Notes: generated from the sequence alone by a model not told the origin. DNA of 26,164 nucleotides from a bacterium (GCA_046485285.1 JAWOHE010000086.1:1-26164); one strand, 5' to 3'; counted from the stretch's first letter, positions 8,776 to 24,250 are shown. Numbers and translations: made by a program.

Positions 8776-10067
8776 CGCCTCATCCCCCGCCGGATGTTCT
8801 CGGTCTTCGCCCAGGACAGCCTGAGCAGGTCGTTCCAGCCATAGCGGTGCCTGCCGTCCTCGAAGGCCGCCATCCGCTCGGTGCAGCAGTAGCACGGGTC
8901 GACCGCGGCCAGCGTGATCGCCGCGTCGGCAATCGTCCCGCCGACGCAGGCGACCTTGTTCGAGGCGATGTTCATATAGCTCGGCGCGCGGACCTTGTGC
9001 CGGAGCGGCCGGTTGCTGCCGTCCGAGCGCATGTAGTGGAAGACCTCGCCGCGCGGGGCCTCGGTGCGGCCGCAGCCCTCGCCCGGCGGCACTTCCTCGA
9101 TCCGCGTCTCGATCGGCCCGGCCGGGGTCTGCTTGAGGCACTGACGGATCATCTTGACCGACTCGATGATTTCGAGGAGCCGGACCTTGGCCTTGGCGAA
9201 GACATCGCCTTCCGGGAAGTGGATGACGTTCCAGTCCAGGTACGGGTATGCGGCGTGCGGCTCGTCGCGCCGGACGTCGCCGGGCACGCCCGACCCGCGG
9301 GAGGTCGGGCCGGTGCAGGAATAGGCCAGCGACTGCTCGCGGGTCAACACCCCGACGCCTTCGAGCCGCGCGTGTATCACCGGGTCGTCGAGCACCGCGT
9401 TGGTCAGGAGCCAGGTCTTCTTCTCGATCTCGTTCATCGCGGCTTCAATCGGCCCGACCATCTCCGGCTTCAGGTCGTGGCGGACCCCGCCCGGCTTGTT
9501 CATCGCGTAGTGGTTGCGGTTGCCGACCAGCATCTCGAAGACGTCGAGCACCGCGTCGCGGTACTTCCACGCCCACATCCAGACCGTGTTGTAGCCGATG
9601 AAATGCCCGGCCAGCCCGACCCAGAGCAGGTGCGAGTGGATCCGCTCGAGCTCGTGGACGATGACCCGAAGGTACTTCGCCCGCTCCGGAATCTCGATGT
9701 TGCAGATGTCCTCGACCGCCATCACCGCCGCCAGCGGGTGTGAGTTCGAGCAGATCCCGCAGATGCGCTCGACCAGGAACGGAACCTGGTCGTAGGTCAG
9801 CTCGGGTGAGATGAACTCGTGGCCGCGGTGGTTGTAGCCGAGGTGGATCTCGAGGTCGACGACCGTCTCGCCCTCGACGACGAGCTTGAAGAACTCGGGC
9901 TCCTCCTGGAGCGGGTGGTACGGCCCGATCGGGACGATGCGCCGGGGGCTACCGCCCCCGGAAGCCGCGCCAGAGGCGCGTTCAGACAAGGAACGGATTT
10001 CCCATCTTCCGACGGCTGCGCCGTCGGCTTCCCGGCGCGTGGCGCCGGGGCCGCTATCCGCGCTCAT
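8772..10067 (-). CDS. Group 4 [NiFe]-hydrogenase large (catalytic) subunit, NuoD-like
   Basis: PIGPYHP, GYNHRG, L1 ERICGICSNSH, ELERIHSH, EAPRGE, L2 DPCYCCTER. All four Ni-Fe Cys are present, followed by a C-terminal extension. Confidence 0.93.
   Translation of the reverse strand: MSADSGPGATRREADGAAVGRWEIRSLSERASGAASGGGSPRRIVPIGPYHPLQEEPEFFKLVVEGETVVDLEIHLGYNHRGHEFISPELTYDQVPFLVERICGICSNSHPLAAVMAVEDICNIEIPERAKYLRVIVHELERIHSHLLWVGLAGHFIGYNTVWMWAWKYRDAVLDVFEMLVGNRNHYAMNKPGGVRHDLKPEMVGPIEAAMNEIEKKTWLLTNAVLDDPVIHARLEGVGVLTREQSLAYSCTGPTSRGSGVPGDVRRDEPHAAYPYLDWNVIHFPEGDVFAKAKVRLLEIIESVKMIRQCLKQTPAGPIETRIEEVPPGEGCGRTEAPRGEVFHYMRSDGSNRPLRHKVRAPSYMNIASNKVACVGGTIADAAITLAAVDPCYCCTERMAAFEDGRHRYGWNDLLRLSWAKTENIRRGMRR
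9960..10049. repeat. Coding palindromic element, diverged inverted copy D (hydrogenase large-subunit N-terminus)
   Basis: Reverse complement reads cccggcgccacgcgccggga...aatccgttcc...cgcgcctctggcgcggcttcc; both terminal hairpins and the gcttcc flank are shared with copies B and C. Confidence 0.72.
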
Positions 10068-11850: not shown

Positions 11851-12314
11851 GGCCGCCTCCAGTGGGGCGAACGGGCGGCGATGCCGACCCCGGTCTTCTT
11901 CTCGGCCAGCTCGCTCTCCTCGACGTACTGGAGCGCGCCGGTCGGGCAGGTCGTGGCACAGCGCGGGCCGCCCTCGCGGTCCGCGCAGAGGCTGCACTTC
12001 TGGGACGTACTGCGCAGGAGGTAAGTGTCCATCACCCCGAACGGGCAGGCCAGCACGCAGGACCGGCAACCGACGCAGTGGAAGCTCGAGCGCGAGACGA
12101 TGCCGGTCTCCGGGTCCTTGCGGATGACGTCGAACGGGCAGGCGGCCATGCACAGCGGCTCGGCGCAGTGCCGGCACGACAGCGGGAAATAGGCCTGGGC
12201 GTTCACCTCGGCGTAGCGCACCCGGGCCTCGCCCCTGAACCGGCTCCGGCAAGCCGCCTCGCACGACCGGCAGCCGATGCAGTAGTCGAGGCGCAGTACC
12301 AGTCGCTTCGCCAT
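11847..12314 (-). CDS. HycB/HydN/DmsB-like 4x[4Fe-4S] electron-transfer protein
   Basis: CIGCRSCEAAC, CRHCAEPLCMAACP, CVGCRSCVLACP, KCSLC..P.CATTCP. Start re-called to ATG 12314. Confidence 0.9.
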   Translation of the reverse strand: MAKRLVLRLDYCIGCRSCEAACRSRFRGEARVRYAEVNAQAYFPLSCRHCAEPLCMAACPFDVIRKDPETGIVSRSSFHCVGCRSCVLACPFGVMDTYLLRSTSQKCSLCADREGGPRCATTCPTGALQYVEESELAEKKTGVGIAARSPHWRRP

Positions 12315-12315
12315 C

Positions 12316-14022
12316 TCAGGACCTCGTTTTGTCCGACCGGGCGGCCGCTTCGAAAAACCGGCCGCCGCGGGAATCCGGGACAGCAACGACCGGGGGTTGG
12401 ACCGCGCCGGCCAGCTTCTCGACCGTGACATTCACCGGCGTGACGGTCGTCATCCCGGAACTCTCGTCCAGCGCCAGCGGGAACAGCGCACGGTTCTCGT
12501 GGACGTTGGTCCCGACCATCGCCACGCCGGGCGGAACCTGCTCCGTGACCAGCGCCTGGAACTCCCGCGCCCCGGTCGGGCTCGTCACCCGGATGACGCT
12601 GTCGCCGTCCGCCCCGAGCCGGACGGCGTCCTCCGGGTTCAGCGACAGCCGGTCCTCCGGGTCGTAGAACCCGCGCAGGCCGATGGCCTTCTTCTCGCCG
12701 ACGAGCAGGAATCCCTCGCCGCCCCGCGCAAGCCCGGCGGCCTTCGTCGCCATCGCGACGACCGCCCCCGGCGCTACGCGCCGAGAATCCGTTCCGGAAT
12801 CCTGATGGCGTTCTCCTTCTCTCCGCGCCGCAGGCGCGGCGTACAGCAGTTCCAGCACCCGGCCGGAATCCCGGCTTCCGCTCAGCGGCGCGGCCAGCGG
12901 CTCGCGGGTCGCCGGCCCCCAGTAGGTCTGGGCCCGGGCGGACTTCTCGAGCTCCGCGGTCACCGGCAGGACCAGCCCGGGCACCGGCGGGTCGGGTATG
13001 AATATCGAAGTCGCCACCCGGTACTCGGCTTTCGCCGCCTCTGGGAAGATTTCGGCGTAGCTGTAAGGGTACAGCCCGCCGGTCCAGAAGAGCAGCCGGA
13101 CCCGTCCCTGCCCGAGCGCCTGGCGCAGCTCGGTGAAGCCCGTCTGGCCGTAGGGCAAGCCGGTCTCGCGGAACCCGGTGAACGGCATCTTTGCCTTCAC
13201 CGCAACCAGCTGAGCCGCCAGGCTGTGCAGGGCCGGGTGATACACCCGGCCGAAATGGGCCGCGCAGCCGACGAAGCCGGGCACGCCCGCGCCCAGCACC
13301 GCGGCGGCCGCGGCGAGCTGACCCCGGCTCACGCCCGCGGCCGCGGCCATGGCGTCGACATCCGCCTTCAGCTTGCCATCGAGCAGGCCGGCCAGCGCGA
13401 CCAGCGCCAGCGGCTCGGTCCCGGGCCGCACCTGGATGAATACATGGGCGAACCCGGACTGCCGGGTCCGGACCGAGTCAATCACCACCAGCCGGTTCTT
13501 CCGGTCCGCGTAGCGGGCGTCGAGCATCCGCCCGGTCGCCACCGGCGAGGTGTTGAAGACGTCGCCGACCAGGAGCATCGCCTTCGCCGCCTCGAGCTCG
13601 GCCAGCGTCGCGTCCTTCACCCCCTCGAGCTTCAGGCTGAATGCATTCTCCGGCTCGATGTGGCCGCAGACGATGAAGTCGGTCCCGATCTCGCGGGCGA
13701 GGTCGAACATCCTGCCGGCCTCGTCGGCACCCCGGCCCCGGCTGTAGACCAGCGCGACTTCCTTGGGCTTCACCGCCGCCCGCCAGGCCCGCACCAGCCG
13801 CTCGGCCTCAGGCCAGGCTATCGGCCTGCCGTCGAGCAGCGGGTAGGCCAGCCGCTTCGGGTGGTCAATCACAACGCTCGCCGAATTGCCCCGGGCGCAC
13901 AGCCTTCCCCGGTTGACCGGCCCGTCGGCCGGGTACTCCATCCGGTACTGGTAGCCGTCGAACACCACCGCCGAGGTACAGCCGTTGAGGCAGAACGGGC
14001 AGGTCGTCGTCTTCGTCTCCAT
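12316..14022 (-). CDS. Molybdopterin-oxidoreductase-fold protein (FdhF/NuoG C-terminal-like), probably degenerate, with one [4Fe-4S]
   Basis: TTCPFCLNGC...NRGRLCARG, RLAYPL, LVVID..RT, VRPGTE, VLPVTAELEK; C-terminal dinucleotide-binding-like domain LNPEDAVRLG...V.VTSPTG...VTEQVPPG. Confidence 0.8.
   Translation of the reverse strand: METKTTTCPFCLNGCTSAVVFDGYQYRMEYPADGPVNRGRLCARGNSASVVIDHPKRLAYPLLDGRPIAWPEAERLVRAWRAAVKPKEVALVYSRGRGADEAGRMFDLAREIGTDFIVCGHIEPENAFSLKLEGVKDATLAELEAAKAMLLVGDVFNTSPVATGRMLDARYADRKNRLVVIDSVRTRQSGFAHVFIQVRPGTEPLALVALAGLLDGKLKADVDAMAAAAGVSRGQLAAAAAVLGAGVPGFVGCAAHFGRVYHPALHSLAAQLVAVKAKMPFTGFRETGLPYGQTGFTELRQALGQGRVRLLFWTGGLYPYSYAEIFPEAAKAEYRVATSIFIPDPPVPGLVLPVTAELEKSARAQTYWGPATREPLAAPLSGSRDSGRVLELLYAAPAARREGERHQDSGTDSRRVAPGAVVAMATKAAGLARGGEGFLLVGEKKAIGLRGFYDPEDRLSLNPEDAVRLGADGDSVIRVTSPTGAREFQALVTEQVPPGVAMVGTNVHENRALFPLALDESSGMTTVTPVNVTVEKLAGAVQPPVVAVPDSRGGRFFEAAARSDKTRS
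12767..12840. repeat. Coding palindromic element, copy A (inside the Mo-fold gene)
   Basis: 66/74 identical to 22796-22869 by manual ungapped alignment. Confidence 0.92.
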
Positions 14023-14025
14023 CGC

Positions 14026-14841
14026 TTATACGAACGGGTCCGGGATGTCCTTGACCTGGTCCCAGGTCAGCACCGGGCCGTCCTTGCAGGTGAAGTATGG
14101 GCCGAGCTTGCAGTGGCCGCAATGCCCGAGCCCGCAGGACATGTTCGTCTCCATCGAAAGGTAGATGTGCTCGCCCCTGAACCCGGCCTCGAGCAGCTTC
14201 ATCGTCACGAACTTCATCATTATCGGCGGCCCGCAGACCACCGCGATGCTCTTCGCCTCGTCGCAGGGAATCTCGTCCATCAGGCAGGTCACGACCCCGA
14301 CCTTCTTCATCCAGCGCTCGTCGCGGACGTCGACCGAAAGGTCGATGTCGACCTTCTTCATCTTCTCCCACTCCGGGATGAGATACTTGTAGACGATGTC
14401 GTCCGGCGTCCGGGCGCCGTAGCGCAGGAAGATCCGGCCGTACTTGTCGATCTCGTGGGTCAGGGCGAGGAACAGCGCCCGCAGCGGCGCGAGCCCGACG
14501 CCGCCGCCGACGATGTAGATGTCCCGGCCCTCGAACTTTTCCAGCGGGTAACGCGCGCCGTACGGCCCGCGGATGCCGACCTTGTCCCCGACCTTGAAGT
14601 TGAACAGCGCCCCGGTCGCCCGGCCGACCTTCATTATCGTCATCTCGATCGTCTCGCGCCGGAAATGCGACGAACTCGGCGTGAACGGCGCCTCGCCGTA
14701 CCCGGGCATCGTCAGCTCAATGAACTGGCCGGCCAGGAACGGCACCTCCTGCTCGGGACGAAGCTCGAAGGTGCGGATATTCGGCGTCTCGTCAATCGTC
14801 TTGACTATCTCGGCCGAGATCGGCTGGAAGATATTCGCCAA
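14026..14841 (-). CDS. FAD/NAD(P)-binding [2Fe-2S] oxidoreductase (AsrB / sulfhydrogenase gamma HydG-like)
   Basis: F.AGQF, GEAPF, RGPYG, GGGVGLAPLR, YGART, CGPPIMMK, MSCGLGHCGHC...TCKDGPV. TTG start at 14841 behind GAGG, 1 nt after the upstream stop. Confidence 0.9.
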   Translation of the reverse strand: MANIFQPISAEIVKTIDETPNIRTFELRPEQEVPFLAGQFIELTMPGYGEAPFTPSSSHFRRETIEMTIMKVGRATGALFNFKVGDKVGIRGPYGARYPLEKFEGRDIYIVGGGVGLAPLRALFLALTHEIDKYGRIFLRYGARTPDDIVYKYLIPEWEKMKKVDIDLSVDVRDERWMKKVGVVTCLMDEIPCDEAKSIAVVCGPPIMMKFVTMKLLEAGFRGEHIYLSMETNMSCGLGHCGHCKLGPYFTCKDGPVLTWDQVKDIPDPFV

Positions 14842-14842
14842 G

Positions 14843-15877
14843 CTAGACCTCGAGCAACACCTTCCGGATGTCGATCTTGCCCATGCAGACCTTGTAGCAC
14901 CGGCCGCAGCCCGAACAGGCCGGCATCCCCTGCCAGTTCGGGAAATGGCTGAACTTGCAGTAAAAGCGGTTGTAGAACCGCTTGATGAACTCGGCCCGCG
15001 GGTTAGCCCCTCCGCCGACCCGGGCATAGGCCGCGACGTAGCAGGCGTCCCAGACCTTCGTCCGCTCCATCCCCTGCGCCTTCGCCTTGTCGTGAAGCAG
15101 GAAGCAGTAGCAGGTCGGGCAGGCCATCAGACAGCCGTAGCACTCCACGCAGTCGGCTGCGTGCCCGGACCAGAACGCGTTGTCCTGGACCCGCTTCCAG
15201 ATCCGGGCCGGCGTGTCCGGGGCGAACGGCTTCGGGTTGATCTCCGCGAGCCGCTTCCCCGCTGCCTTTCGGCTTGACTCGCGCGAGGCAAGCTGGGCCT
15301 CGGTCGCCGGGGTGGTGCGGGCGAGCACGACCAGCTTCTCCCCCGCCTCGGTCAGCGGTTCGAGCAACCAGCCGTCCTCGAGCACCGAGAAAGCCACGTC
15401 CGCCTCGTCCCGGTCCTCGCCCGTCGCGTACGGCCGCCCGTGGACGAGGTTGCAGAAGCAGCTGTCCTCCGGGGCCGGGCAGTCCGCGACGACGATCAGC
15501 GTGTTCTCCCGGCGCGAGCGGTAGAAGTCGTCCTTGTGCTCCTGCTCGAGGTACATCTTCCGGTGCACCCGCAGCGCGGCCACGTCGCAGGCCTTCGCCC
15601 CGAACAGGATACGGCGTTCGGCCGGACCCGGCTCGAACCGCCCGGGTAGCTCCGCGACCTTCTCGCGCGGGGAGAAGAGAAAGGTCTTGACCGGCTCCGC
15701 GGCCCGGATCCGCTTCAGCGCGGCGCCAATCGCATCCGCGCTCTCCGTCGCCTCCGGACTCAGTCTCTGCCAGTGTACCTGCTCCTTGGCAATGGCAGGC
15801 ACGAAAAGGGCAGAATGGGCCGAAAGCGCTCGGAGCCAGTCGGGTGAGGACGCATTCGCGAGGAACTGGATACTCAC
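14843..15877 (-). CDS. 4Fe-4S dicluster protein (AsrA / sulfhydrogenase beta HydB-like)
   Basis: KTFLFSPRE, LFGAKACD, D.FY..RRE, SCFC, CVECYGCLMACPTCYC, WDAC, CSGCGRCYKVC..KID. Confidence 0.88.
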   Translation of the reverse strand: MSIQFLANASSPDWLRALSAHSALFVPAIAKEQVHWQRLSPEATESADAIGAALKRIRAAEPVKTFLFSPREKVAELPGRFEPGPAERRILFGAKACDVAALRVHRKMYLEQEHKDDFYRSRRENTLIVVADCPAPEDSCFCNLVHGRPYATGEDRDEADVAFSVLEDGWLLEPLTEAGEKLVVLARTTPATEAQLASRESSRKAAGKRLAEINPKPFAPDTPARIWKRVQDNAFWSGHAADCVECYGCLMACPTCYCFLLHDKAKAQGMERTKVWDACYVAAYARVGGGANPRAEFIKRFYNRFYCKFSHFPNWQGMPACSGCGRCYKVCMGKIDIRKVLLEV

Positions 15878-15886
15878 GTAGGCGGA

Positions 15887-15914
15887 AAACTACAAATCTA
15901 AAACCGATTGTCAA
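15887..15914 (-). promoter_or_regulatory. Sigma70-like promoter of the hydrogenase operon
   Basis: TTGACA(15914-15909)-16 bp-TAGTTT(15892-15887) in an AT-rich gap, 9 nt before the GTG start; no SD. Confidence 0.65.
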
Positions 15915-15939
15915 GCAGAACGTGAACTCGTTCGACCAC

Positions 15940-15967
15940 TTGACCCGGTCGCGTTGAGGGCGAGAAT
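15940..15967 (+). promoter_or_regulatory. Divergent sigma70-like promoter
   Basis: TTGACC(15940-15945)-16 bp-GAGAAT(15962-15967); in-frame GTG at 15975 near the expected +1. Confidence 0.45.
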
Positions 15968-16376
15968 GTCGGCTGTGGCAGTTGTCGTCCTGCTTTCGCT
16001 TCTGGCCTTTGGGCCCGCCGCCGGGGTGGATACACCGGCACCAAATGAGGGATGGGTAGGATGGGAGGGGAAGGGTCGAGAGGGCCGGGGAGGATGGGAA
16101 GGAGCGGAGGACGGCTGGCTGGGCCTTGACAAGCTGTGGCACTTCTCGGCCAGCTTCGTCACGGTCGGCGCCGGGTATCACCTCTGCGCCAACCGCTTCG
16201 GCCTTGCCCACGCGCCTGCAGTCGGCATTTCAATCGGCGGCACGTTTTCGCTGGGAATCGGCAAGGAACTGTCCGACCGCTACGGGTTCCGCCGCCGCTT
16301 TTCGTGGAAGGACGTCGCGGCCAACTGCCTCGGCATCGCCGCCGGCTATTTCGTCTTCGCCCACCAGTACCGATGA
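15966..16376 (+). CDS. YfiM/DUF2279-like small membrane or exported protein
   Basis: Signal-peptide-like N-terminus; WLGLDKLWHFSASF, GIGKELSD, FSWKDVAAN..G motifs. Start is ATG 15966 or GTG 15975. Confidence 0.7.
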   Translation: MSAVAVVVLLSLLAFGPAAGVDTPAPNEGWVGWEGKGREGRGGWEGAEDGWLGLDKLWHFSASFVTVGAGYHLCANRFGLAHAPAVGISIGGTFSLGIGKELSDRYGFRRRFSWKDVAANCLGIAAGYFVFAHQYR

Positions 16377-16945
16377 ACCCCCTGCTCGAGCGTCTCCGCC
16401 AGGAGGGCCTGACCGTGCTCGTCGTCCGGGGTGAGGAGGAACTCTACCGTTCGACCCTGTCCGGCGTGCGGCCCCTGCTGGAGCTGTGGAGCTTGTATGC
16501 AGGAACACAGGCTGCGCCTCTTTCGGCCGGGCCCGCCTGCCGTGGCGTGGGCAGGCTCGCCGGCGCAACCGTGGCCGACCGGGTGGTCGGCGGGTGCGCG
16601 GCGCGGGTTTTCCTGCACCTGGGCGTTGAGAGAGTGTTCGCCTTGGTCGGTTCGATACCGGCCCGGGCGATCCTGACCGCGGCCGGCATCGGCTTCGAGG
16701 TCGAGCGCGGGGTGCTCGAAATCCGGAACCGGAACGGTACCGACACCTGCCCGTTCGAGCGGCTCAGCCGGCACTGCCGCCGGCCGGGAAACCTCGTCCC
16801 GGCAATGGCCCGCCTGCTCGACGCGCTCGGCCGCGGCTCAGTACGACCCGGCGCGGCCGGTGTTCCGCGCGTCGCTCCGGAACTTCGGCCAGGCGCCGTT
16901 GTCGAGCTTCCCCGAGCCGCGGACCGCCCAGAGACTGCCGGCTGA
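16373..16945 (+). CDS. DUF1893 (TM1506-like) protein
   Basis: GVRPLLEL, GATVADRVVG.CAA, S.PA..IL, I.NR.GTDTCPFE motifs; ATGA coupling to the upstream gene. Confidence 0.8.
   Translation: MNPLLERLRQEGLTVLVVRGEEELYRSTLSGVRPLLELWSLYAGTQAAPLSAGPACRGVGRLAGATVADRVVGGCAARVFLHLGVERVFALVGSIPARAILTAAGIGFEVERGVLEIRNRNGTDTCPFERLSRHCRRPGNLVPAMARLLDALGRGSVRPGAAGVPRVAPELRPGAVVELPRAADRPETAG
16530..16555. repeat. Third copy of the CCTGCC...GGCAGG repeat, inside the DUF1893 gene
   Basis: ggcccgcctgccgtggcgtgggcagg; 24/26 identical to 18688-18713. Confidence 0.8.
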
Positions 16946-18523
16946 GTCGCCGACATAGAGCACGCCGTCGGTCACGGCCACCGACCCTTCGACGTCTGCC
17001 GGCAGGGTCAGGAACCACGCGATACCCCCCTCGCCGTACGAGTCGACGGCGTACAGGCGTCGGCCCGAGCCGAAGTGGACTATCAGGTCGGAGTCGACGA
17101 GCGGCGATGAACGGACCGGCGTCACGACCGCGACCTGCCAGACCGGGCCGCCGGTCGGGTAGAAGGCGCAGATGCGGCCGTCCTCGGTGCCGACATAGAC
17201 ATTGCCGTCCGACGCGACGGCCGGCGAGGAGCGCGAACCGGCACCGACCTCCTCGCGCCAGGCCTGCGTTCCGCCCGGGTCGAGCGCATACAGCCACCCG
17301 TCGGTCGAGACGACGTAGACCTTGCCGTCGCCGCCGATGGCCGGGGAGGCGTCAACCGCGCCGCCGGTCGCGTGCCGCCAGAGCAGCGCGCCGTCAGAGT
17401 CAAGCGCGTAGACGTAGCCGTCACCGGAGCCGAAGCAGACCGAGCCGCCCGGGCCAAGCGCCGGGGATGACCTGACCGCCCCGCCGGTCGCGTGGCTCCA
17501 GCGCAGTGACCCGTCCGGGCCAAGACAGTAGAGATGTCCGTCGTCCGACCCGACATAGACGGCGCCGTCTTCTCCAAGCGCCGGCGAGGAGTTGATTTCG
17601 CCGCCGGTCAGCCAGGTCCAGCGCGGCCCGCCGGCGGCGCTGAGACAGTGGACCCTTCCGTCTGCCGCGCCAAAGACAATTGAGCCGTCGTCCCCGACCG
17701 CCGGCGAGGACAGCACCGGCGCGCCCGCGTCCTGGCTCCACACTTCGACGCCGTTCGCGTCCACGCATCGCAGGAACCCGTCGCCTGCCCCGAAGAGGAC
17801 CCGGCCGGCCGCGTCGATGGCCGGGACCCCGGCCACGGCGGCCCCGGCACCGGTCTCGAAACGCCAGAGCACGACGCCAGGACCGTTGATGTCGCGCATC
17901 GCCACCCTGAGCGTCTCCGACCAGGCTGACGCGAGCCCGGGGCGGTCGAGCGCCCGGACCGTCACCTCGAAGGTGTCGGTGCGCGTCCAGGCGTGGGCGA
18001 GCGTCGCGTACCGGCCGGTTTCATAAAACGCGGTCGTCTCGACCACACCGTCACCCCAGTCGAAGACGTAGCGGATGTCGTCGGCGTCGAGGTCGGTCGC
18101 GACAGTCGTGTAGGAATGGCTCGTGTCGGTCCAGCCCGAGCGTGGCCCGTCGGGCCGGGTCGGCCGGCGCGGCGGGTTGCCGACAAGCACCTCGAGCGGC
18201 TCCGACCAACCGGACAGCGCCTCCTGCGCGTCGCGCGCCTGCGCGGCGACCTCGTAGCGCCCGACCTGCCGCCAGGCGTGGCGGAGCGACGCGGTCTCGC
18301 CCGCGCCGACCCACAGGCTCCAGCCCGAGGTATCGCCATCGCCCCACGCGCACCGGAAACTCACGCTGTAGTCCTCCGGGTCGCGGCTCGAGAACCGAAA
18401 CTCGGCCGAGTCGCCCGGCGCGACCGCGGTCGGTCCGGACGGGACCGCCGGGGTGTCGGGCGGCCGGTTGCCCGGGCACGCGATGATGAACAGACAGACG
18501 GAAATCAGCAAGGCCCTGGTCAT
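16838..18523 (-). CDS. Lipoprotein with two PKD-like domains and a PQQ/BamB-type beta-propeller
   Basis: Lipobox-like MTRALLISVCLFIIAC; two N.PP.TP..P.GP...WGDG repeats; repeated SSPA.G.DG.VYVGS.DG.LY blades; GGAGG RBS at 18531-18535. Confidence 0.85.
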   Translation of the reverse strand: MTRALLISVCLFIIACPGNRPPDTPAVPSGPTAVAPGDSAEFRFSSRDPEDYSVSFRCAWGDGDTSGWSLWVGAGETASLRHAWRQVGRYEVAAQARDAQEALSGWSEPLEVLVGNPPRRPTRPDGPRSGWTDTSHSYTTVATDLDADDIRYVFDWGDGVVETTAFYETGRYATLAHAWTRTDTFEVTVRALDRPGLASAWSETLRVAMRDINGPGVVLWRFETGAGAAVAGVPAIDAAGRVLFGAGDGFLRCVDANGVEVWSQDAGAPVLSSPAVGDDGSIVFGAADGRVHCLSAAGGPRWTWLTGGEINSSPALGEDGAVYVGSDDGHLYCLGPDGSLRWSHATGGAVRSSPALGPGGSVCFGSGDGYVYALDSDGALLWRHATGGAVDASPAIGGDGKVYVVSTDGWLYALDPGGTQAWREEVGAGSRSSPAVASDGNVYVGTEDGRICAFYPTGGPVWQVAVVTPVRSSPLVDSDLIVHFGSGRRLYAVDSYGEGGIAWFLTLPADVEGSVAVTDGVLYVGDSAGSLWAVRGSGKLDNGAWPKFRSDARNTGRAGSY

Positions 18524-18524
18524 G

Positions 18525-20774
18525 TCAATCCCTCCGCGGTCGTTTCGTCCTGTGCGGCCGTGCGTTCTTCTGCGCGTCACGGCGCCCGGCGCCAGGTTTG
18601 CGGCCGGGCCAGACCGAGCCTGGCCGGCGCGGCCGCGTGTCCCATTCCTCGCCGCGAGCGTGCCCGGCTGGACCGCGGCGGCCGTCCGGCCCGCCTGCCG
18701 CGGCGCGGGCAGGGCGGCGGTCAGCGCCGGGGCGCGGGCCGGGATAGTCCCTGCGTCGCTTGAACCCGCGCGCATCGCCGTCACGCCGGCCCGACGCGGT
18801 CCCGGGACGCGACGCCCGACGGCCCGGCCCGCCTGCCGCGGCGCGGGCAGGGCGACGGTCGGAGTCGCGCACCCAGTCACCCGGCGCTGCGCGCCGGGAG
18901 TCCGTTCCGGAATCCGAAAGGAACCTCTCATCTGGTCCGCGCCGAAGGCGCTGCTTCCCAGCGGCCGGGCCGCCGGGCGCGTCTCTCTTCTTTCTCACCG
19001 GCCGTTCTTCCTCTGCGCCCTGGACCCCTGCCAGGAGCTGGACTCGCCGAAGCAGGTCCCTGCACCCCATCCGCTCGAGCTCGCGCTCGGCGAAGGCCCG
19101 GTTGGCCGGGACGTGCAACTGCAGGAGACAGCGCTGGAGCCGCTGTTCCTCCGGGCTCCGCGCGACCTCGACCTTGTCCCCGGTCAGCGGGTCGCGGCCG
19201 GTGTGCCAGACCGCCGCGGAGAGGGTCATCGGCAGGGGGGTGAACTGCTGGACCTGCCGGATCCTGATTTTCTCATCCCGGACGAGGTGTTCGGCGAGCT
19301 CGACCGCGCTGTCGGCCGTCGCGCCCGGGTGGCCGCTGATGAAGTAGGGTATCAGGTACTGCTTGAGCCCGAGCTTCTCGTTGACCCGCCGGAACCGCTC
19401 CCGAAACTTCTGCCAGTCGCCCGGCGCGTACTTGCGCATCCGCGCGAGGACCTCGGCACAGACGTGCTCGGGCGCGACCCGGAGCTGGCCGGAGACGTGG
19501 CTCCGGCAGAGCTGTTCGAGGTAGCCAAGCCCGGCCGCGCCGTCGAGAAGGTCGAAGCGCAGACCGGAGCCGACCGTGACCTTCCTGACCCCGGGGACCT
19601 GCGCGACCGCGGCGAGGAGCGCGAGCTGACGGTCGAGCGCGAGGCGGAGGTTCGGGCAGGGCTCGGGCCAGAGGCAGTCGCGGTCCGCGCAGACCGCGCC
19701 GCGTTTCATCCGGGCGCAGGTCGCGCCGTACATGTTGACGGTCGGGCCGCCGACGTCGGTGATGTGGCCGCGGAAGTCGGGCAGGAGCGCGATGGCGGCC
19801 GCCTCGCGGACGACCGACGCCTCGGTCCGCCAGCCGATGATCCGGCCCTGGTGCGCGCGGAGCGAACAGAAGGCGCAGGAGCCAAGACAGCCGCGATGCG
19901 AGGTTATCGAGAACGCGACCGTCGCGAGCGCGGGCACCGGTTCCGGGCATGACGGGTGAGGCAGGCGGGTATACGGGAGGTCGTAGACCCGGTCGAGGTC
20001 CGCGCCGCTGAGCGGGGGCCCGGCCGGTTCCTGGACTACGAAGCGGTTGGCGTGGGGCTGGACGACCGGCCGCGCGCTCTCGAGGTACCAGGCCCGGAAC
20101 GCCTCGTTGAACCGCCCCGCGTCGTCGCGCGCGGCCTCGTACGAGGGCAGGACGCAGGCGTCGCCGGCCGGCATCTCGCGCCGGATGACGCAGGTGCCCG
20201 GGATGCCGTCGAGCGGCGCGCCGGCGTCGAGCCGGCGGGCGATTTCGACCGCCGCCAACTCGCCCATCCCGTAGACGAGGATGTCGGCGCGGGTGTCGGC
20301 GAGGAGCGAGGGCCGGACGCGGTCGTCCCAGTAGTCGTAGTGCGCGAGCCGGCGCAGGCTCGCTTCGACGCCGCCGAGCACCAGCGGGACGCCGGGGAAC
20401 GCCTCGCGCAGGCGGTTGGCGTAGACGGTCGAGGCGCGCGGCGGGCGCAGGCCGGGCCTGCCGCCGGGCGAGTAGTCGTCCTCGCGGCGGCGCTGGAACG
20501 ACGGGCTGTAGTTGGCGACCATCGAGTCGACGTTGCCGGCGGTGACCGCGAACGCGAGCCGGGGACGGCCGAGCGCGGTGAAATCCGCGGTCGAGCGCCA
20601 GTCGGGTTGGGAAATCACCCCGACCCGGAACCCGGCGTCCTCGAGGACCCGGGCGATGACCGCGCTTCCGAACGCCGGGTGGTCGACGTAGGCGTCGCCG
20701 GTGACGATGATGATGTCGCAGGCGTCCCAGCCGAGCGTGCTGAGCTCCTCGCGGCCGGACGGCGGGAATGGCAT
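18525..20774 (-). CDS. ygiQ: YgiQ (UPF0313) family radical SAM protein with a long low-complexity C-terminal tail
   Basis: DIIIVTGDAYVDHPAFG, GNVDSMV, GGVEASLRR.AHYDYW, RGCLGSCAFC, DVGGPTVNMY, LRVAPEH, PYFISGHPG, QVQQFTPLPMT. Start re-called to ATG 20774 (TGATG overlap). Confidence 0.9.
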   Translation of the reverse strand: MPFPPSGREELSTLGWDACDIIIVTGDAYVDHPAFGSAVIARVLEDAGFRVGVISQPDWRSTADFTALGRPRLAFAVTAGNVDSMVANYSPSFQRRREDDYSPGGRPGLRPPRASTVYANRLREAFPGVPLVLGGVEASLRRLAHYDYWDDRVRPSLLADTRADILVYGMGELAAVEIARRLDAGAPLDGIPGTCVIRREMPAGDACVLPSYEAARDDAGRFNEAFRAWYLESARPVVQPHANRFVVQEPAGPPLSGADLDRVYDLPYTRLPHPSCPEPVPALATVAFSITSHRGCLGSCAFCSLRAHQGRIIGWRTEASVVREAAAIALLPDFRGHITDVGGPTVNMYGATCARMKRGAVCADRDCLWPEPCPNLRLALDRQLALLAAVAQVPGVRKVTVGSGLRFDLLDGAAGLGYLEQLCRSHVSGQLRVAPEHVCAEVLARMRKYAPGDWQKFRERFRRVNEKLGLKQYLIPYFISGHPGATADSAVELAEHLVRDEKIRIRQVQQFTPLPMTLSAAVWHTGRDPLTGDKVEVARSPEEQRLQRCLLQLHVPANRAFAERELERMGCRDLLRRVQLLAGVQGAEEERPVRKKRDAPGGPAAGKQRLRRGPDERFLSDSGTDSRRAAPGDWVRDSDRRPARAAAGGPGRRASRPGTASGRRDGDARGFKRRRDYPGPRPGADRRPARAAAGGPDGRRGPAGHARGEEWDTRPRRPGSVWPGRKPGAGRRDAQKNARPHRTKRPRRD
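18686..18860. repeat. Two copies (18686-18722, 18824-18860) of a 37-bp CCTGCC...GGCAGG palindromic repeat
   Basis: ccggcccgcctgccgcggcgcgggcagggcgRcggtc; one mismatch, 138 bp apart. Confidence 0.9.
18880..18954. repeat. Coding palindromic element, copy C (ygiQ tail)
   Basis: cccggcgctgcgcgccgggagtccgttccggaatcc...tccgcgccgaaggcgctgc; same two hairpins and the same gttccggaatcc core. Confidence 0.88.
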
Positions 20775-22519
20775 CAGTGCTTGCGCGGGATATTTTCCCA
20801 GGGCATCTTCGCGCCCCGGTGCTTCGCGCCGGGCGGCTGGACGGAAGACGGACGCTCGGTCCCCGGTCGCGCGTCGGGCCGGCCGCGGTGCGCGGCGCGG
20901 TCCTCGATGACCTGCATGTCCCGGGTCCGCGCGCGCCAGCGCTGGATGATGCCGTCGACGTCGGCATCGGGCAGGCCCTCGGCCCACCAGCGGTCGTAGT
21001 CGATGTCGGCGCTCGAGGGCTGAGGGTCGGGCATGTCGACCATCACCCGGGTCGGCAGGGCGACCGAGTTGCCGAGGATGACCGCCTCGCCGGTCCGGAG
21101 CGCGGGCAGCATCGCGATCAGCCCGGTCGCGGTGTCGGGCACGAGCCGGCGGACGTAGTCCTGGTCGTCGGGGTTGGTCAGCCGCATCGCGAGGAAGTTG
21201 TTGCACTGGGCAATCACCGTCTCGGACAGCTCCTTCGGCCGCTGGGAGACGACGACCGCGCCGACGCCGTACTTCCGGCCCTCTTTCATTATCCGCTCGA
21301 CCGCGGCGCGGCAGGCCCGGTAGCGGTCGTCATCGCGGTTCGGGATGTAGCTGTGCGCCTCCTCGTAGACCATCAGGATCGGAAACCGGCGCCGGTCCGG
21401 GTTCCAGAGGTTGAACTCGAAGACGATCCGCGAGACGACCGCGACGACGACGCCGACCGCCTCGTTCGGCACGCCCGACAGGTCGACGACCGTCATCCGC
21501 TTGCCGGTGTCGACGCTCAGGAAGTCGCGCAGGAGCCGGGGCAGGCTGTCCGCTCCCTTGTAGGCGCGGCACTTGAACATGAAGTCGTAGCGCGGGTCGC
21601 TCATCCGCGAGTCGAAGCGGATCAGGAACCGGTCGAACACGCCGTAGAGCGGGCCGGGAACGACCCGGCCCTCCGGGTCCGGCACCATCTGGATGTTCCA
21701 GTTCCGGAGCTGGCCGAGCAGTTCGTCGATGTCGAAGTAGACCGGCGAGTCGACCATCACCGACGACCCCAGCCCCATCCGCTCGGCGACGTCGGTGCTC
21801 TGGCGGGCGCGGACGATGCAGTCGCGCAGGACGGTTATCTGGTTCTTCGCGCTCGCCTCCATCCGGTCCACCGCCAGGTCTTGGAACTCGTCGAAGCTCA
21901 GGATCCAGTAGGGCAGCTCGACGTCGTCGGCGTGGATGGCGTTGACGCTGTCCGGGAACGCGCGGGCGTACTCGCCGTGCAGGTCGAGCACGACGATGTG
22001 GGTGTGTGGATACTTCCGGATGACCGACTGGAGCATGCTCGCGACGGTGTACGACTTCCCGCAGCCGGTCGAGCCGACCACCGCGCAGTGCTGGCCGAAG
22101 AACCGGTTGACGTCGATGTAGGCGCGCTGGTCCGGCGCCTGCGACAGCGAGCCGAACGAGAAGTCGAAGTGGACGAACTCGGCGAATATCGTCCGGAGCT
22201 CCGACGACGTCACCATCTCGACCGGCTGGCCGACGTTCGGGTAGATCGCGACGCCCCGGACGAACCGGCCGCCGGGCTGGAGCGTACCGATCAGCACGCA
22301 GCCGGCGGTCTTCCGGCCCGCCTCCCCGGCCGGCATCCGTACGTCGGACACGATGCCGATGATGCTGTAGTCGCGGAACGGGACCTTGATGTACGACCCC
22401 GGCTGGCCGGGATAGTAGTTTTCGGACAGCGGGACGGTCGTGTCGGCGGTCAGGTCGGCGACCGCGCGCTCGCCGGAAATCTCGACCAGTCGGCCGATAA
22501 TGATGCCGGCTTCTTTCAT
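20774..22519 (-). CDS. HerA/DUF87-family P-loop ATPase with N-terminal HAS-barrel-like domain
   Basis: GQPGSYIKV (HAS-like), H.AVVGSTGCGKS (Walker A), DLHGEY, ILMVYEEAH (Walker B), EGRKYG, SQRP, D.D.V, L.TGEA. Start ATG 22519 (ATGA overlap with xseB). Confidence 0.88.
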   Translation of the reverse strand: MKEAGIIIGRLVEISGERAVADLTADTTVPLSENYYPGQPGSYIKVPFRDYSIIGIVSDVRMPAGEAGRKTAGCVLIGTLQPGGRFVRGVAIYPNVGQPVEMVTSSELRTIFAEFVHFDFSFGSLSQAPDQRAYIDVNRFFGQHCAVVGSTGCGKSYTVASMLQSVIRKYPHTHIVVLDLHGEYARAFPDSVNAIHADDVELPYWILSFDEFQDLAVDRMEASAKNQITVLRDCIVRARQSTDVAERMGLGSSVMVDSPVYFDIDELLGQLRNWNIQMVPDPEGRVVPGPLYGVFDRFLIRFDSRMSDPRYDFMFKCRAYKGADSLPRLLRDFLSVDTGKRMTVVDLSGVPNEAVGVVVAVVSRIVFEFNLWNPDRRRFPILMVYEEAHSYIPNRDDDRYRACRAAVERIMKEGRKYGVGAVVVSQRPKELSETVIAQCNNFLAMRLTNPDDQDYVRRLVPDTATGLIAMLPALRTGEAVILGNSVALPTRVMVDMPDPQPSSADIDYDRWWAEGLPDADVDGIIQRWRARTRDMQVIEDRAAHRGRPDARPGTERPSSVQPPGAKHRGAKMPWENIPRKH

Positions 22520-22881
22520 TCCTGCTCTTCGTCGTTCCCGGTCCGGTCGAGCGGCTCCTCCCGGAACAGGTCCTCGCGCTCGCGGACCAGCTTCGCGACC
22601 CGAAGCTCGGCCGCGTCGAGCCGCTGCTTGCACTGCCGGGCCAGCTCGACGCCGCGCTCGAACAACCGGAGCGACTCGTCGAGGCTCGGCTTTCCGCCCT
22701 CGAGCTGCTTGACGACGCCTTCGAGCTCGGCGAGCGCGGCCTCGAAGTCACCCGGCGCCTCGCGCCGCGGGGAATTCGGGGACATAACCGATTTGCCCGG
22801 CGCTCCGCGCCGGGAGTCTGTTCCGGAATCCTGCCGGAATTCTCCTTCTCTCCGCGCCGCAGGCGCGGCTTCCTTCTTCAT
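22516..22881 (-). CDS. xseB: Exodeoxyribonuclease VII small subunit, with a repeat-derived N-terminal extension
   Basis: FEAALAELEGVVKQLEGGKPSLDESLRLFERGVELARQCKQRLDAAELRV; ATG 22881 behind GGAGG (alternative ATG 22785). Confidence 0.9.
   Translation of the reverse strand: MKKEAAPAARREGEFRQDSGTDSRRGAPGKSVMSPNSPRREAPGDFEAALAELEGVVKQLEGGKPSLDESLRLFERGVELARQCKQRLDAAELRVAKLVREREDLFREEPLDRTGNDEEQE
22796..22869. repeat. Coding palindromic element, copy B (xseB N-terminus)
   Basis: cccggcgctccgcgccgggagtctgttccggaatcctgccggaattctccttctctccgcgccgcaggcgcggc. Confidence 0.92.
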
Positions 22882-22885
22882 ATCA

Positions 22886-24250
22886 TCATCCTCCCTCGAC
22901 CGGGGCCCCACGGCGGGTCCCGCGCACTTCGCAGTCAACGCGGCCGTCGGAGACCAGCGCCTCGAGTCGGTCGCCGGCCGCCACCTGCCCGACCCGACTG
23001 ACGACCGCGCCCGCCGGAGTCCGGAGCAGGGCGTAACCGCGGCCGATGCTCGCAAGCGGGCTCAGCGCGTCGAGCCGGGCCAGCGCCTCCCGGAGCCGCG
23101 CCCGCTGCTCGCGGGCCAGCGCCTCGACGCGCCGCGCGGCCAGCGCCGTCGCGGACTCGAGCCGCCGGCGGGCCCGCTCGAGTCGGGCCTGCGGGTTCTG
23201 CCCGGCCAGCCGCTCGCCCAGTCGGTTAGCGGCCTCGACGCGACGGTGAATCCCGGCTGCGGCCGCCGCACCGGCCCGGGCCGCTGCCCGTTCGGCCCGG
23301 TGGCGCGCATCGGCCAGCCGCGCCAGCGCCGACTCGAACGCCCGGTGCCGGGCCAGCTCGTCGAGCCGCCGTTCGCGGTCCGCCAGCGCCCGCTCGACCG
23401 CCTCGGCGAGGCGCCCGGCGAGCTCACCCAACCGCCGCTCGAGGTCGTCCCAGCCGCGGGCGACCGCCTGCGCCGCCGCGGTCGGCGTCGCGGCGCGCAA
23501 GTCGGCCGCGAAATCGGCGATGGTGAAGTCGGTCTCGTGTCCGACCCCGGAGACGACCGGCACCCGCGACCCGGCAATCGCCCGGGCGACGACCTCCTCG
23601 TTGAAGCACCAGAGGTCCTCGATCGAGCCGCCGCCCCGGCCGACGATGATGACGTCGACGTCGTCGCGCGCGGACAGCGCCCGGACGCCGGCGGCGACCT
23701 GCTCGGCCGCGCCCTCGCCCTGGACCTGGGCCGGGTAGACCAGCACCCGGACCCGGGCCCGGTGGAGCGCCAGGGTCCGGAGCATGTCCCTGAGCGCGGC
23801 GCCGGCCGTCGACGTCACGATCCCGACGGTCCGCGGCAGGGCCGGCAGCGGCCGCTTGCGTTCTTCGTCGAACAGCCCCTCGGCGGCGAGCCGCCGCTTG
23901 AGTTGCTCGAACGCCGCCTGGAGCGCGCCCAGCCCGGCCGGCTCGGCCCGGTCGAGAATCAACTGGAACCGGCCGCGCGGTTCGTAGAGGTCGAGCCGGC
24001 CGTGGCCGACGACCTGCATCCCATCCTCGAGCCGGAACTTGAGCCTGGCGACCGAGCCCCGGAACATCGCCGCGTCGAGCTGGGCGGCGTCGTCCTTGAG
24101 GACGAAGTAGCAGTGGCCGGAGGGATAGGCTTTCAGGTTGGACACCTCGCCGGTGACCCAGATGTCATGGAACCGCTCGGCCAGCATCCCGGCCACCAGC
24201 CGGTTGACCTGGGCGACCGTCAGGACGCGCGTCGGCGCTGTAACCTCGAT
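22886..24250 (-). CDS. xseA: Exodeoxyribonuclease VII large subunit; start probably upstream of the ORF-track call
   Basis: VLTVAQVNRLV, WVTGEVSN, SGHCYFVLKD, L.AEGLFD, GAALRD, VQGE.A, GRGGGSIEDLWCFNEE, SGVGHETDFTIADFAADLRAATPT, LSPL....RGY. The start codon is uncertain (see findings). Confidence 0.92.
   Translation of the reverse strand: MEVTAPTRVLTVAQVNRLVAGMLAERFHDIWVTGEVSNLKAYPSGHCYFVLKDDAAQLDAAMFRGSVARLKFRLEDGMQVVGHGRLDLYEPRGRFQLILDRAEPAGLGALQAAFEQLKRRLAAEGLFDEERKRPLPALPRTVGIVTSTAGAALRDMLRTLALHRARVRVLVYPAQVQGEGAAEQVAAGVRALSARDDVDVIIVGRGGGSIEDLWCFNEEVVARAIAGSRVPVVSGVGHETDFTIADFAADLRAATPTAAAQAVARGWDDLERRLGELAGRLAEAVERALADRERRLDELARHRAFESALARLADARHRAERAAARAGAAAAAGIHRRVEAANRLGERLAGQNPQARLERARRRLESATALAARRVEALAREQRARLREALARLDALSPLASIGRGYALLRTPAGAVVSRVGQVAAGDRLEALVSDGRVDCEVRGTRRGAPVEGG

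Follow-up and report, generated by a model that had tools for sequence, protein, structure and literature searches.

A stretch of 26,164 nucleotides from an uncultured bacterium with 69% GC (GCA_046485285.1, JAWOHE010000086.1; hereafter the window) carries copies of a hairpin-forming repeat, three of which are read as coding sequence in their open reading frames, and this raises the question of what kind of element enters genes in this way and by which means. An earlier note on the same DNA had taken the repeat for a REPIN-like doublet, an inverted pair of REP hairpins with GNA loops that is moved by an HUH enzyme encoded elsewhere. The analysis described here points to a different answer: in all likelihood the repeat, some 105 nt long, is a palindromic mobile element that is confined to a lineage, not autonomous and often inserted in genes, and whose enzyme would act in trans.

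Architecture and distribution of the repeat

The element consists of three hairpins and a conserved core, which in the plus orientation of the window follow the order HP1, 20-nt core, CT-rich tract, HP2, HP3. The features of the window are as follows.

12767-12840, plus strand: copy A, with HP1 12767-12785 (loop GTA), core, CT-rich tract and HP2 12823-12839 (loop GCA); without HP3
18880-18977, plus strand: copy C, full length, with HP1 18880-18898 (loop GCA), HP2 18937-18953 (loop GAA) and HP3 18957-18977
22796-22874, plus strand: copy B, with HP1 22796-22814 (loop GGA) and HP2 22852-22868 (loop GCA); without HP3
9954-10050, minus strand: fourth, weak and diverged copy (nhmmer E 7e-4; covariance model 31.6 bits, E 5e-4), probably copy D of the earlier note
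22771-22795, plus strand: segment of about 25 nt that separates copy B from native xseB sequence and is lacking in relatives
20815-20833, no strand assigned: imperfect hairpin, not a copy of the element, within the coding sequence of a HerA-like ATPase
22746-22767, no strand assigned: native xseB sequence resembling an HP1 arm, also present in the empty sites of relatives
22519-22884, minus strand: xseB in its present form, 122 codons including the element-encoded insert

HP1 and HP2 thus lie where the earlier note had placed them, with the HP1 loops on the minus and the HP2 loops on the plus strand. The two GNA-type loops on opposite strands are real, but they do not belong to inverted copies of one REP, as the stems differ (HP1 CCCGGCGC, HP2 CCGCGCC). 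The doublet is further contradicted by the conserved, non-palindromic 20-nt core, which contains TTCCGGAA, and by the third hairpin. Because HP3 lies beyond HP2 in most copies, copy C included, and copies A and B lack it, HP2 is internal and not the right end of the element, A and B being truncated. Two further elements of the earlier description had to be given up: the proposed solo copy at 20815-20833 folds no better than shuffles (z -0.7; 46 of 200 fold as well) and is coding sequence that aligns unbroken with relatives, while the proposed half-copy at 22751 is native xseB sequence.

HP1 has an 8-bp stem and a 3-nt loop. It has only its outer 7 bp in common with HP3, and these form the terminal inverted repeats of most full-length copies (CCCGGCG at the left end, CGCCGGG at the right). 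The CT-rich tract occurs in two subtypes. Stems and core are at least 90% conserved, the first two positions of the HP1 loop 56% and 41%. The canonical 3-nt HP1 loop is present in 30 of 37 genomic copies, with G first in 28, A third in 19 and GNA in 18, the others being GTG and GTT (three each), GAC (two), GGT, GCC, TGA and AAG; for HP2, 22 of the 33 loops found are GAA or GCA. G and A are therefore not fixed as had been claimed, and the GNA loop is a preference only. As DNA, whole copies fold better than shuffles (z -2.0 to -5.2). Covariation of the HP1 and HP2 stems, which the earlier interpretation called for, was not seen within the genome (compensatory change at 0 of 15 pairs); HP2 and HP3 are kept via compensatory changes in divergent members, namely C7c and the copies L055, L061 and L063 of the same-genus genome G002.

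Both nhmmer and a covariance model find 37 copies in the small host genome (G000), a fragmented assembly of 102 contigs that is 88% complete, which bears out the description of a dispersed, non-autonomous element with conserved hairpins. Weaker matches to the covariance model occur in G002 (seven), one of four same-genus genomes, and in G014 (five), which belongs to another genus, and none was obtained in the other 38 of 41 genomes searched. The segment of about 25 nt beside copy B contains GGGGACATAACC, which resembles the outer module found beside HP1 in the G002 and G014 families. A collection scan for HP1 plus GGGAGTCC returned 49 stretches, nearly all of them single matches in unrelated high-GC taxa, with two matches each in only two records; when ten of these loci were tested with the model, 12 matches resulted, the four best-scoring of which are element-like. 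A metagenome scan for the 20-nt core gave two matches, neither recognised by the model, and Rfam, searched with window positions 12000-23500 at E up to 10, returned only four matches, all far below their gathering scores. The element is a new family in an uncultured lineage.

In-frame insertion into conserved genes

Of the 37 copies, at least 10 are located within coding sequence, and the 3' end of a gene extends into another 11. Nine of the ten intragenic copies are in frame (P = 4e-4 against 1/3) and all ten share one orientation (P = 0.002); at the HP1 end, the frame reading DSGTDSRR.APG is used in 10 of 14 cases (P = 0.004). The in-frame copies occupy nine conserved genes, among them gcvPA, mutM, xseB and a molybdopterin oxidoreductase. 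For all nine (loci winA, C61b, C61e, C53b, winB, C75a, C96, C7b and C8a; winA compared with eight orthologues) an empty site exists in same-genus genomes, and the copies are therefore insertions.

Copies A, B and C of the window are all read as coding sequence, a point absent from the earlier note. Copy A lies within a 568-aa molybdopterin-oxidoreductase ORF (12316-14022, minus strand; Pfam Molybdop_Fe4S4 and Molydop_binding), where it is read in frame as ..AAPAARREGERHQDSGTDSRRVAPG.., and the idea of a separate small ORF or leader peptide was discarded, as the orthologues show one continuous gene. Copy B is inserted after codon 4 of xseB and read in frame, the xseB ATG (22884-22882) lying two bases after the xseA stop (22886-22888); this site is empty in G001-G004. 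Copy C is found at the 3' end of a YgiQ-type radical SAM gene. Here, the ORF (18525-20777, minus strand) runs through the copy and 117 further codons, and the orthologue in G002 has its stop close to the start of the element.

In sequence, the host genes are intact: Pfam domains lie across the inserts or on either side of them (GDC-P, Fapy_DNA_glyco, Aminotran_1_2, Dala_Dala_lig_C, Peptidase_M23, PolyA_pol), and solved structures of MutM and of the P-protein align with the sequence before and after the insert and run uninterrupted through its position. No second copy of gcvPA, xseB or the molybdopterin oxidoreductase was found in the 88% complete assembly. Judging by intact frames and codon bias, the insert-bearing proteins may be made and working. 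Stop codons are nearly absent from the element, whose purine-rich strand codes for a hydrophilic peptide of Arg, Gly, Ala, Pro, Glu and Ser. These two properties would explain why insertions survive in genes when they are in frame and in the peptide-encoding orientation, each adding about 28-38 residues at linkers, loops or termini.

Target site and candidate mechanisms

The repeat has been inserted at about 37 sites, the HP1 end usually adjoining a CCGGC-type target, and this pattern suggests that it is mobile. CCGGC ends at the HP1-side junction of the empty site in six of the eight assessable loci (P about 2e-7). The junctions are blurred, since the relatives are only about 75-80% identical in DNA, and at three loci (winA, C61e and C8a) the insertion is not clean, 12-48 nt of ancestral sequence having given way to the element.

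A fixed CCGGC-type target of 5-7 nt at one end only and no clear duplication fit a single-stranded DNA mechanism of the HUH type. Tentatively, an IS200/IS605- or RAYT-type ssDNA tyrosine transposase might insert the element 3' of CCGGC(G), which would pair with the CGCCGGG of the element to form HP1 and leave no duplication. Such a process is compatible with the hairpins at both ends of the element and with the outer HP1 arm of C61b and C96, whose variant bases agree with those of the empty sites. The host genome holds one match to Y1_Tnp (PF01797; contig C44; 51 bits, above the cut-off), which scores 43 bits against the RAYT model NF047646 and 18 bits against the IS200 model, and its profile search returned no DDE_Tnp_1 (PF01609), TnpB (PF07282) or IS110 (PF01548). 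The RAYT score is, however, below the cut-off of 80 bits, the Y1 frame is broken by a 70-nt tandem duplication, and the flanks of the gene contain neither HP1, HP2 nor HP3. The most repeated 16-mers beside it occur three times (5') and 15 times (3'), and the 15-copy sequence belongs to a different, GTTAC-type repeat, arrays of which were found only at this locus among the 12 checked. In relatives, 11 Y1 loci were checked and HP1-like hairpins flank none of them; three genomes in which the covariance model detected no element copy (G001, G003 and G004) nevertheless have Y1 genes, and the orientation of the element is not linked to local GC skew (18:19). Nor was an autonomous copy with the same ends that encodes TnpA, with or without TnpB, found in the host genome (88% complete). 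The HUH/REPIN interpretation of the earlier note, which proposed to look for a Y1 or RAYT gene flanked by the same hairpins, is possible but unsupported, and its proposal that the enzyme is not encoded in the window agrees with the lack of any candidate there.

An extension of the single-strand mechanism, which we regard as improbable, would assign the outer arm of HP1 to the host: the transposon would pair its target with its own CGCCGGG as a guide, so that the left hairpin would be made of host and element DNA, and its stop-free, hydrophilic strand would let it colonise essential genes.

A conventional MITE moved by a DDE transposase is a rather doubtful option as well. It would have 7-nt terminal inverted repeats (CCCGGCG and CGCCGGG) and duplicate a short CCGG-containing target, the alternative that the earlier note itself had named; the inverted repeats in the outer 7 nt of HP1 and HP3 were found, a clear duplication was not. 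At C7b, the empty site has one CCCGGCG, to which CCCGGCG on the left and CCCTGGTG on the right of the element correspond, and C61b is compatible with a duplicated CCGGC; at C53b and C96, on the other hand, the bases that follow the right end do not begin again in the way a duplication predicts. The near-palindromic nature of the target makes a repeat indistinguishable from an inverted repeat at such junctions. The rve matches of the host genome are IS3-type transposase fragments at three contig ends, which indicates that insertion sequences are under-assembled; the IS3 family itself was rejected, since its termini are unlike the ends of the element, and DDE_Tnp_1 is absent from the profile search.

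Other candidates in the host genome were a single GIY-YIG match, whose ORF of 628 aa lies 5.6 kb away from the closest copy and, by its length, is probably UvrC, and one reverse transcriptase match on a contig without an element copy. A composite transposon for the inverted pair on contig C75 was rejected because housekeeping genes (rpsR, rplI and tyrS, named from sequence) lie between the two copies. A self-BLAST of the genome for multi-copy insertion sequences gave mostly segments of 80-90% identity, which were taken as gene families.

Spread without an enzyme, by which hairpin-prone DNA is copied into sites of microhomology through template switching or illegitimate recombination, is most unlikely. 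The target does resemble the element ends on one or both sides (CCGGC on the left, CGGG at C53b, GCGCCGG in xseB), GC-rich quasi-palindromes are present at C8a and C53c, and ancestral sequence is replaced at several sites, but the boundaries are uniform across the 37 copies, and conservation of the non-palindromic core points to recognition by a protein. A non-mobile cis-acting RNA or DNA module kept for its function (terminator, RBS cassette or protein-binding site) is barely credible and largely refuted, since the element was not found at the orthologous positions compared in same-genus genomes. In favour of such a module, conservation is strong in core and stems with the loops free to vary, the gene-sense strand carries a Shine-Dalgarno-like GGAGAGAAGGAGAA and four copies lie directly upstream of -35/-10-like hexamers, but there is neither an Rfam match nor a model match in most related genomes, orientation to neighbouring genes is mixed (about 25:12), and copies lie inside coding sequence.

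Relation to known repeats and significance

The lineage-specific mobile element favoured here can be set beside several known classes. Judged by analogy, its closest known parallel is the group of Rickettsia palindromic elements (RPEs), for which PMC10969869 gives 44 insertions in R. conorii, close to half of which lie in ORFs. RPEs and the present element alike are palindromic repeats that occur in many copies and measure about 100-150 nt; by that account, a large share of both lies in frame in unrelated housekeeping genes and encodes a conserved peptide, with no transposase known for either. The present element has the same hallmark in its nine conserved genes with an in-frame palindromic repeat and orthologues that lack it. 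By contrast, the RPE host is AT-rich and intracellular, and the element described here is built of three discrete GC hairpins and a non-palindromic core. Its CCGGC-type target and strict intragenic orientation are established for this element, RPEs being compared by behaviour only. Sequence homology between the two is very unlikely given the 69% GC of the host, and the resemblance is one of behaviour, not descent.

With REPs and REPINs the element shares GC-rich, non-autonomous hairpin repeats and a single Y1 gene in the genome. According to PMC3337134, PMC3733652 and PMC5581495, REPs are extragenic palindromes of 20-40 nt and REPINs two inverted copies of one REP, "almost always" flanking a RAYT gene, whereas the present element has hairpins that are unlike one another and many intragenic copies, and its hairpins do not flank the Y1 gene. 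Bacterial MITEs such as Correia, ERIC, BOX and Nezha are likewise short, non-autonomous, structured and dispersed, and occasional in-frame fusions with host ORFs are mentioned in PMC10969869. Their defining features are a parent insertion sequence, duplication of the target and inverted repeats at the termini, and of these the element has the inverted repeats; two loci (C7b and C61b) are compatible with a duplication and two others (C53b and C96) are not, and the IS3 ends are unrelated.

PATEs, which derive from IS200/IS605, carry a hairpin close to each end, are inserted beside a short fixed target on one side and show no obvious duplication, all of which is also true of the element. Unlike in PATEs, no IS200/IS605 copy with matching ends and no TnpB were found in the host genome, and the target would form part of a hairpin stem, an arrangement that, to our knowledge, differs from that of IS608.

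That a palindromic repeat colonises housekeeping genes in frame has hitherto been regarded as almost peculiar to Rickettsia, and PMC10969869 calls its occurrence elsewhere only "conceivable". If the interpretation favoured here is true, a free-living, uncultured lineage of high GC would provide a second and independent case. The evidence is stronger than usual, with an empty site for each intragenic in-frame copy, a measurable preference for orientation and frame, and a defined target motif; the CCGGC target provides a concrete handle on the mechanism of a putative ssDNA transposase. Should the pairing of the host target with a guide in the element also hold, the copies would represent a new family of miniature elements, targeted by a guide, by which proteins are remodelled in an uncultured phylum. 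In annotation, insert-bearing genes will be split or extended by gene callers or have their starts misplaced, as is the case in the window for the start of xseB and the stop of the YgiQ-type gene. For the organism, such elements can lengthen core genes, gcvPA, mutM and xseB among them, with their reading frames intact.

Anatomy of the repeat family

The window is the entire contig C59, one of 102 in a 2.34-Mb, 69% GC assembly, and a repeat search of it placed copies of the element at 12767, 18871 and 22787 (repeat families D6 and D9). A profile seeded with 26 copies finds 37 copies in this source genome (G000) at E < 1e-3, and a covariance model with three helices likewise gives 37 matches. 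The aligned copies define an element of about 105 nt, longer than the version drawn in an earlier note made from the sequence alone, with the following parts.

Parts of the element in + orientation, from hairpin HP1 to hairpin HP3 as in the window
HP1: CCCGGCGC, 3-nt loop, GCGCCGGG
Core: AGTCCGTTCCGGAATCC, every column conserved at 84% or more
Tract after the core: about 20 nt, two subtypes, CT-rich end
HP2: CCGCGCC, loop GNA, GGCGCGG
Spacer between HP2 and HP3: GCTT
HP3: CCCGGCGGCC, 1-5-nt loop, GGCCGCCGGG

Copy C is full length (18880-18977), copies A (winA, 12767) and B (winB, 22796) end after HP2, and therefore HP2, which had been taken as the right end, is not an element end; it is internal, since HP3 lies beyond it in full-length copies such as C. 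Over the stretch from HP1 through HP2, pairs of copies are on average 80% identical; in a subfamily of five copies the HP1 end has a longer loop and 10 nt of additional sequence.

The hairpins listed in the earlier note are present in the sequence and fold as drawn with DNA parameters. Its rule of a GNA triloop holds in part for HP1: among the 30 of 37 copies with a canonical 3-nt loop, read on the strand used there, the first base is nearly always G (28/30), the middle base is free and the final A is only preferred (19/30). GNA loops make up 18 of these 30 (GCA 6, GGA 5, GTA 4, GAA 3), the others being GTG 3, GTT 3, GAC 2, and GGT, GCC, TGA and AAG with 1 each. An HP2 loop was identified in 33 copies, 22 of which have GAA or GCA. 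The hairpin at 20815, read as a solo copy, folds no better than shuffles (z = -0.7) and sits in HerA-like coding sequence with an unbroken alignment to the same-genus genome G004, while the supposed half-copy at 22751 is native xseB sequence, present in relatives too.

Stem covariation, proposed as a sign of selection on the hairpins, is absent from HP1 and HP2 within the source genome (two-sided changes in 0 of 15 pairs), a count that carries little weight either way as the stems hardly vary. HP3 has seven two-sided pairs, some of them produced by force-aligning the flanks of truncated copies. Compensatory changes do preserve hairpins in diverged members, namely HP2 of copy C7c in the source genome and, in the same-genus genome G002, HP2 of loci L055 and L063 and HP3 of L061.

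Three copies are nested in an inverted repeat, CACCAAGACAC.AA... / ...TT.GTG.CTTGGTG (G000:C62:5392-5545, C95:5670-5830 and C101:37729-37870), which has 13 matches across the genome. In the right flanks of copies C61a, C61d, C75b and C11, a TTGAC(A/C/T) hexamer directly follows HP3, pointing away from the element, with a -10-like hexamer 16-17 nt downstream; one example precedes rpsR.

Copies within genes

All nine in-frame intragenic sites have an empty counterpart in same-genus genomes (C61b, C61e, C53b, copy B, copy A, C75a, C96, C7b and C8a, most named by contig), although at C75a the alignment is poor and the empty site rests on BLAST coordinates only. Solved structures of MutM (1l1t) and of the P-protein alpha subunit (1wyt) match the proteins up to and beyond the insert and run without interruption through the site. 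The empty sites mark the element as an insertion, often within genes.

Placement of copies relative to genes (GC3-based frame analysis and ORF extraction; copy B placed from the comparison with relatives)
Within genes, in-frame read-through: 9 copies
Within a gene, with a frame change (GT2 glycosyltransferase gene, C71): 1 copy
Gene 3' end reads through the whole element: 8 copies
Gene stop inside the element: 3 copies
No entering frame with coding signal, or ambiguous: 16 copies

Intragenic hosts with Pfam matches are GcvPA, MutM/Fpg, a class I/II aminotransferase, a D-Ala-D-Ala-ligase-like ATP-grasp protein, an M23 peptidase protein (two copies), a poly(A)-polymerase/CCA-type enzyme, a Mo-oxidoreductase and XseB; a large secreted protein without a Pfam match is a further host. 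The element also forms a C-terminal tail on MiaA and on a lysyl-PG-synthase-like membrane protein. The assembly holds no second copy of gcvPA, xseB or the Mo-oxidoreductase gene. At G000:C71:11933-12991, the family-2 glycosyltransferase gene shifts frame exactly at a truncated copy, just past the DXD region, and this seems to be the sole intragenic copy that breaks its host.

In the window, copy A lies inside a 568-aa ORF, between a preceding Molybdop_Fe4S4 domain and a following Molydop_binding domain; eight orthologues in relatives are continuous at the site and lack the element, which replaces about 48 nt of linker in the DNA-level comparison. Orthologues of this gene in G001 (L004) and in a further relative, G018 (L005), each have one in-frame TGA, possibly selenocysteine in those relatives, and the window gene (12316-14022) has none. 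Copy B lies in xseB, whose ATG in relatives overlaps or closely follows the xseA stop; the source genome keeps the same start, followed by four codons, the element in frame and the remainder of XseB. Copy C is at the 3' end of a YgiQ-type radical SAM gene, the G002 orthologue of which stops about where the element starts, and the frame continues through the copy and 117 further codons. Another short repeat of the window, a hairpin centred on CCTGCC...GGCAGG, occurs at 16521-16571, 18679-18729 and 18817-18867; the read-through tail beyond copy C holds two of these, encoding RRPARAAAGGP twice, the third is near 16.5 kb, and a loose pattern has eight matches in the genome, counting both strands.

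Intragenic copies are biased: frame is kept in nine of ten (P = 4e-4 against one in three), and the HP3-to-HP1 direction is co-directional with the gene in all ten (P = 0.002). Of 14 translated copies, 10 read the HP1 end in the frame ..DSGTDSRR(V/A/G)APG.. (P = 0.004). Copies at gene 3' ends lie in either direction, and when every copy is scored against its downstream gene the orientations split roughly 25:12. Rich in purines, the gene-sense strand specifies Arg/Gly/Ala/Pro/Glu/Ser; the opposite strand would encode Phe/Leu/Ser/Pro-rich peptides, with stops in one subtype. We infer that the intragenic bias reflects selection on the product.

Insertion target and mobilisation

In empty sites, CCGGC, often as CCCGGCG, ends exactly at the HP1 start (+ orientation) at six of the eight assessable loci, which exclude copy B and C75a (P about 2e-7, allowing 2 nt each way and given that CCGGC occupies 0.9% of positions). 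It is present at C61b, C53b, C7b, C96, copy A (G002 and G001 orthologues) and the intergenic C53c (G004); C8a has GCCGG only, and at C61e the site is replaced, without the motif. The junction therefore lies within 5-7 nt common to target and element end. Where the outer HP1 arm of C61b or C96 departs from the usual sequence, its bases agree with those of the corresponding empty site, which suggests that this arm is at least partly host-derived. At C7b the element has CCCGGCG to its left and CCCTGGTG to its right, where the empty site holds CCCGGCG once; this locus and C61b are compatible with target duplication, C53b and C96 are not, for a nearly palindromic target compared between species of only 75-80% identity.

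Movement by an HUH-type transposase, as the earlier note proposed, is doubtful. The single Y1_Tnp gene of the source genome (C44:28764-29505) scores closer to the RAYT than to the IS200 model, below the cut-off, and its frame is shifted by a tandem duplication of about 70 nt that looks exact and could be either genuine damage or an assembly artefact. Among 41 related genomes, 15 carry Y1 genes; these include the four others of the genus, and three of those four have no model match to the element. The element was not found flanking the Y1_Tnp gene of the source genome, and the predicted association of its hairpins with RAYT/Y1 genes did not materialise, with HP1-like flanks at 0 of 12 Y1 loci. 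Element orientation bears no relation to local GC skew.

DDE_Tnp_1, TnpB and IS110 were not found in the source genome, and the IS3-type fragments at contig ends have termini unrelated to those of the element. A MITE moved by a DDE-type enzyme is also unlikely, and slightly less probable than the HUH model.

The sole repeated flank of the Y1_Tnp gene is a different family, of 12-nt GTTAC-type arrays, a short member of which lies directly downstream of the gene. Long imperfect palindromes of these units (GTTAC/GTAAC core) occupy at least ten loci of the source genome, outside the window; the Y1 loci of 11 relatives have none.

GTTAC/GTAAC arrays in the source genome
C35:22520-22680
C26:4840-5100
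C19:18640-18880
C85:280-500
C58:4700-4880
C39:23040-23250
C7:26160-26290
C44:29545-29610

The commonest 16-mers of the genome derive from arrays of a palindromic 12-mer, GGGGATATCCCC (62 occurrences in 35 clusters outside the window, such as C9:4721-4757 and C11:22882-22906), and a CCGGGGGCCGTCCCGG repeat often lies about 100 nt beyond them at the same loci. Another repeat of about 95 nt (GGGGGAGAAGACGGGAGACGGGA...; G000:C75:17107-17200 and 19725-19820) adjoins copy C75b and also lies between tyrS and neighbouring genes.

Distribution and relation to known elements

Among 41 genomes, the covariance model has 37 matches in the source genome, seven weaker ones in G002 (same genus) and five in G014 (another genus); none were found in the other 38, G001, G003 and G004 included, the assemblies being incomplete. 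The G002 and G014 versions share the architecture of HP1, GGGAGTCC, CT-rich tract, HP2 and HP3, with different spacers and HP3 stems, and frequently sit within an outer inverted repeat. When one genome per species was scanned, only two records gave more than one match to HP1 plus GGGAGTCC, one of them titled candidate division WOR-3 bacterium.

Two loci differ from relatives in arrangement. In G002 (C157), the YgiQ gene adjoins the gene that flanks copy C61c in the source genome (window 18981/19078 and G000:C61:17097-17212); since that gene lies on another contig of the source genome, two element copies stand at a break in synteny, perhaps the product of recombination between them. The genes flanking C53a (G000:C53:22800-23250) are about 0.4 kb apart, compared with about 1 kb in G001, G002 and G004, and sequence may have been lost at this copy.

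The element lacks three defining features of REPIN/RAYT systems as these are set out in parts of PMC3337134, PMC3733652 and PMC5581495. It is not a doublet of one REP, contrary to the REPIN-like reading first offered; REPIN/RAYT elements are extragenic, whereas this one is not; and they flank RAYT, which this one does not. Its behaviour matches the Rickettsia palindromic elements, so far as these are described in part of PMC10969869. The element is a new family of a kind already known.
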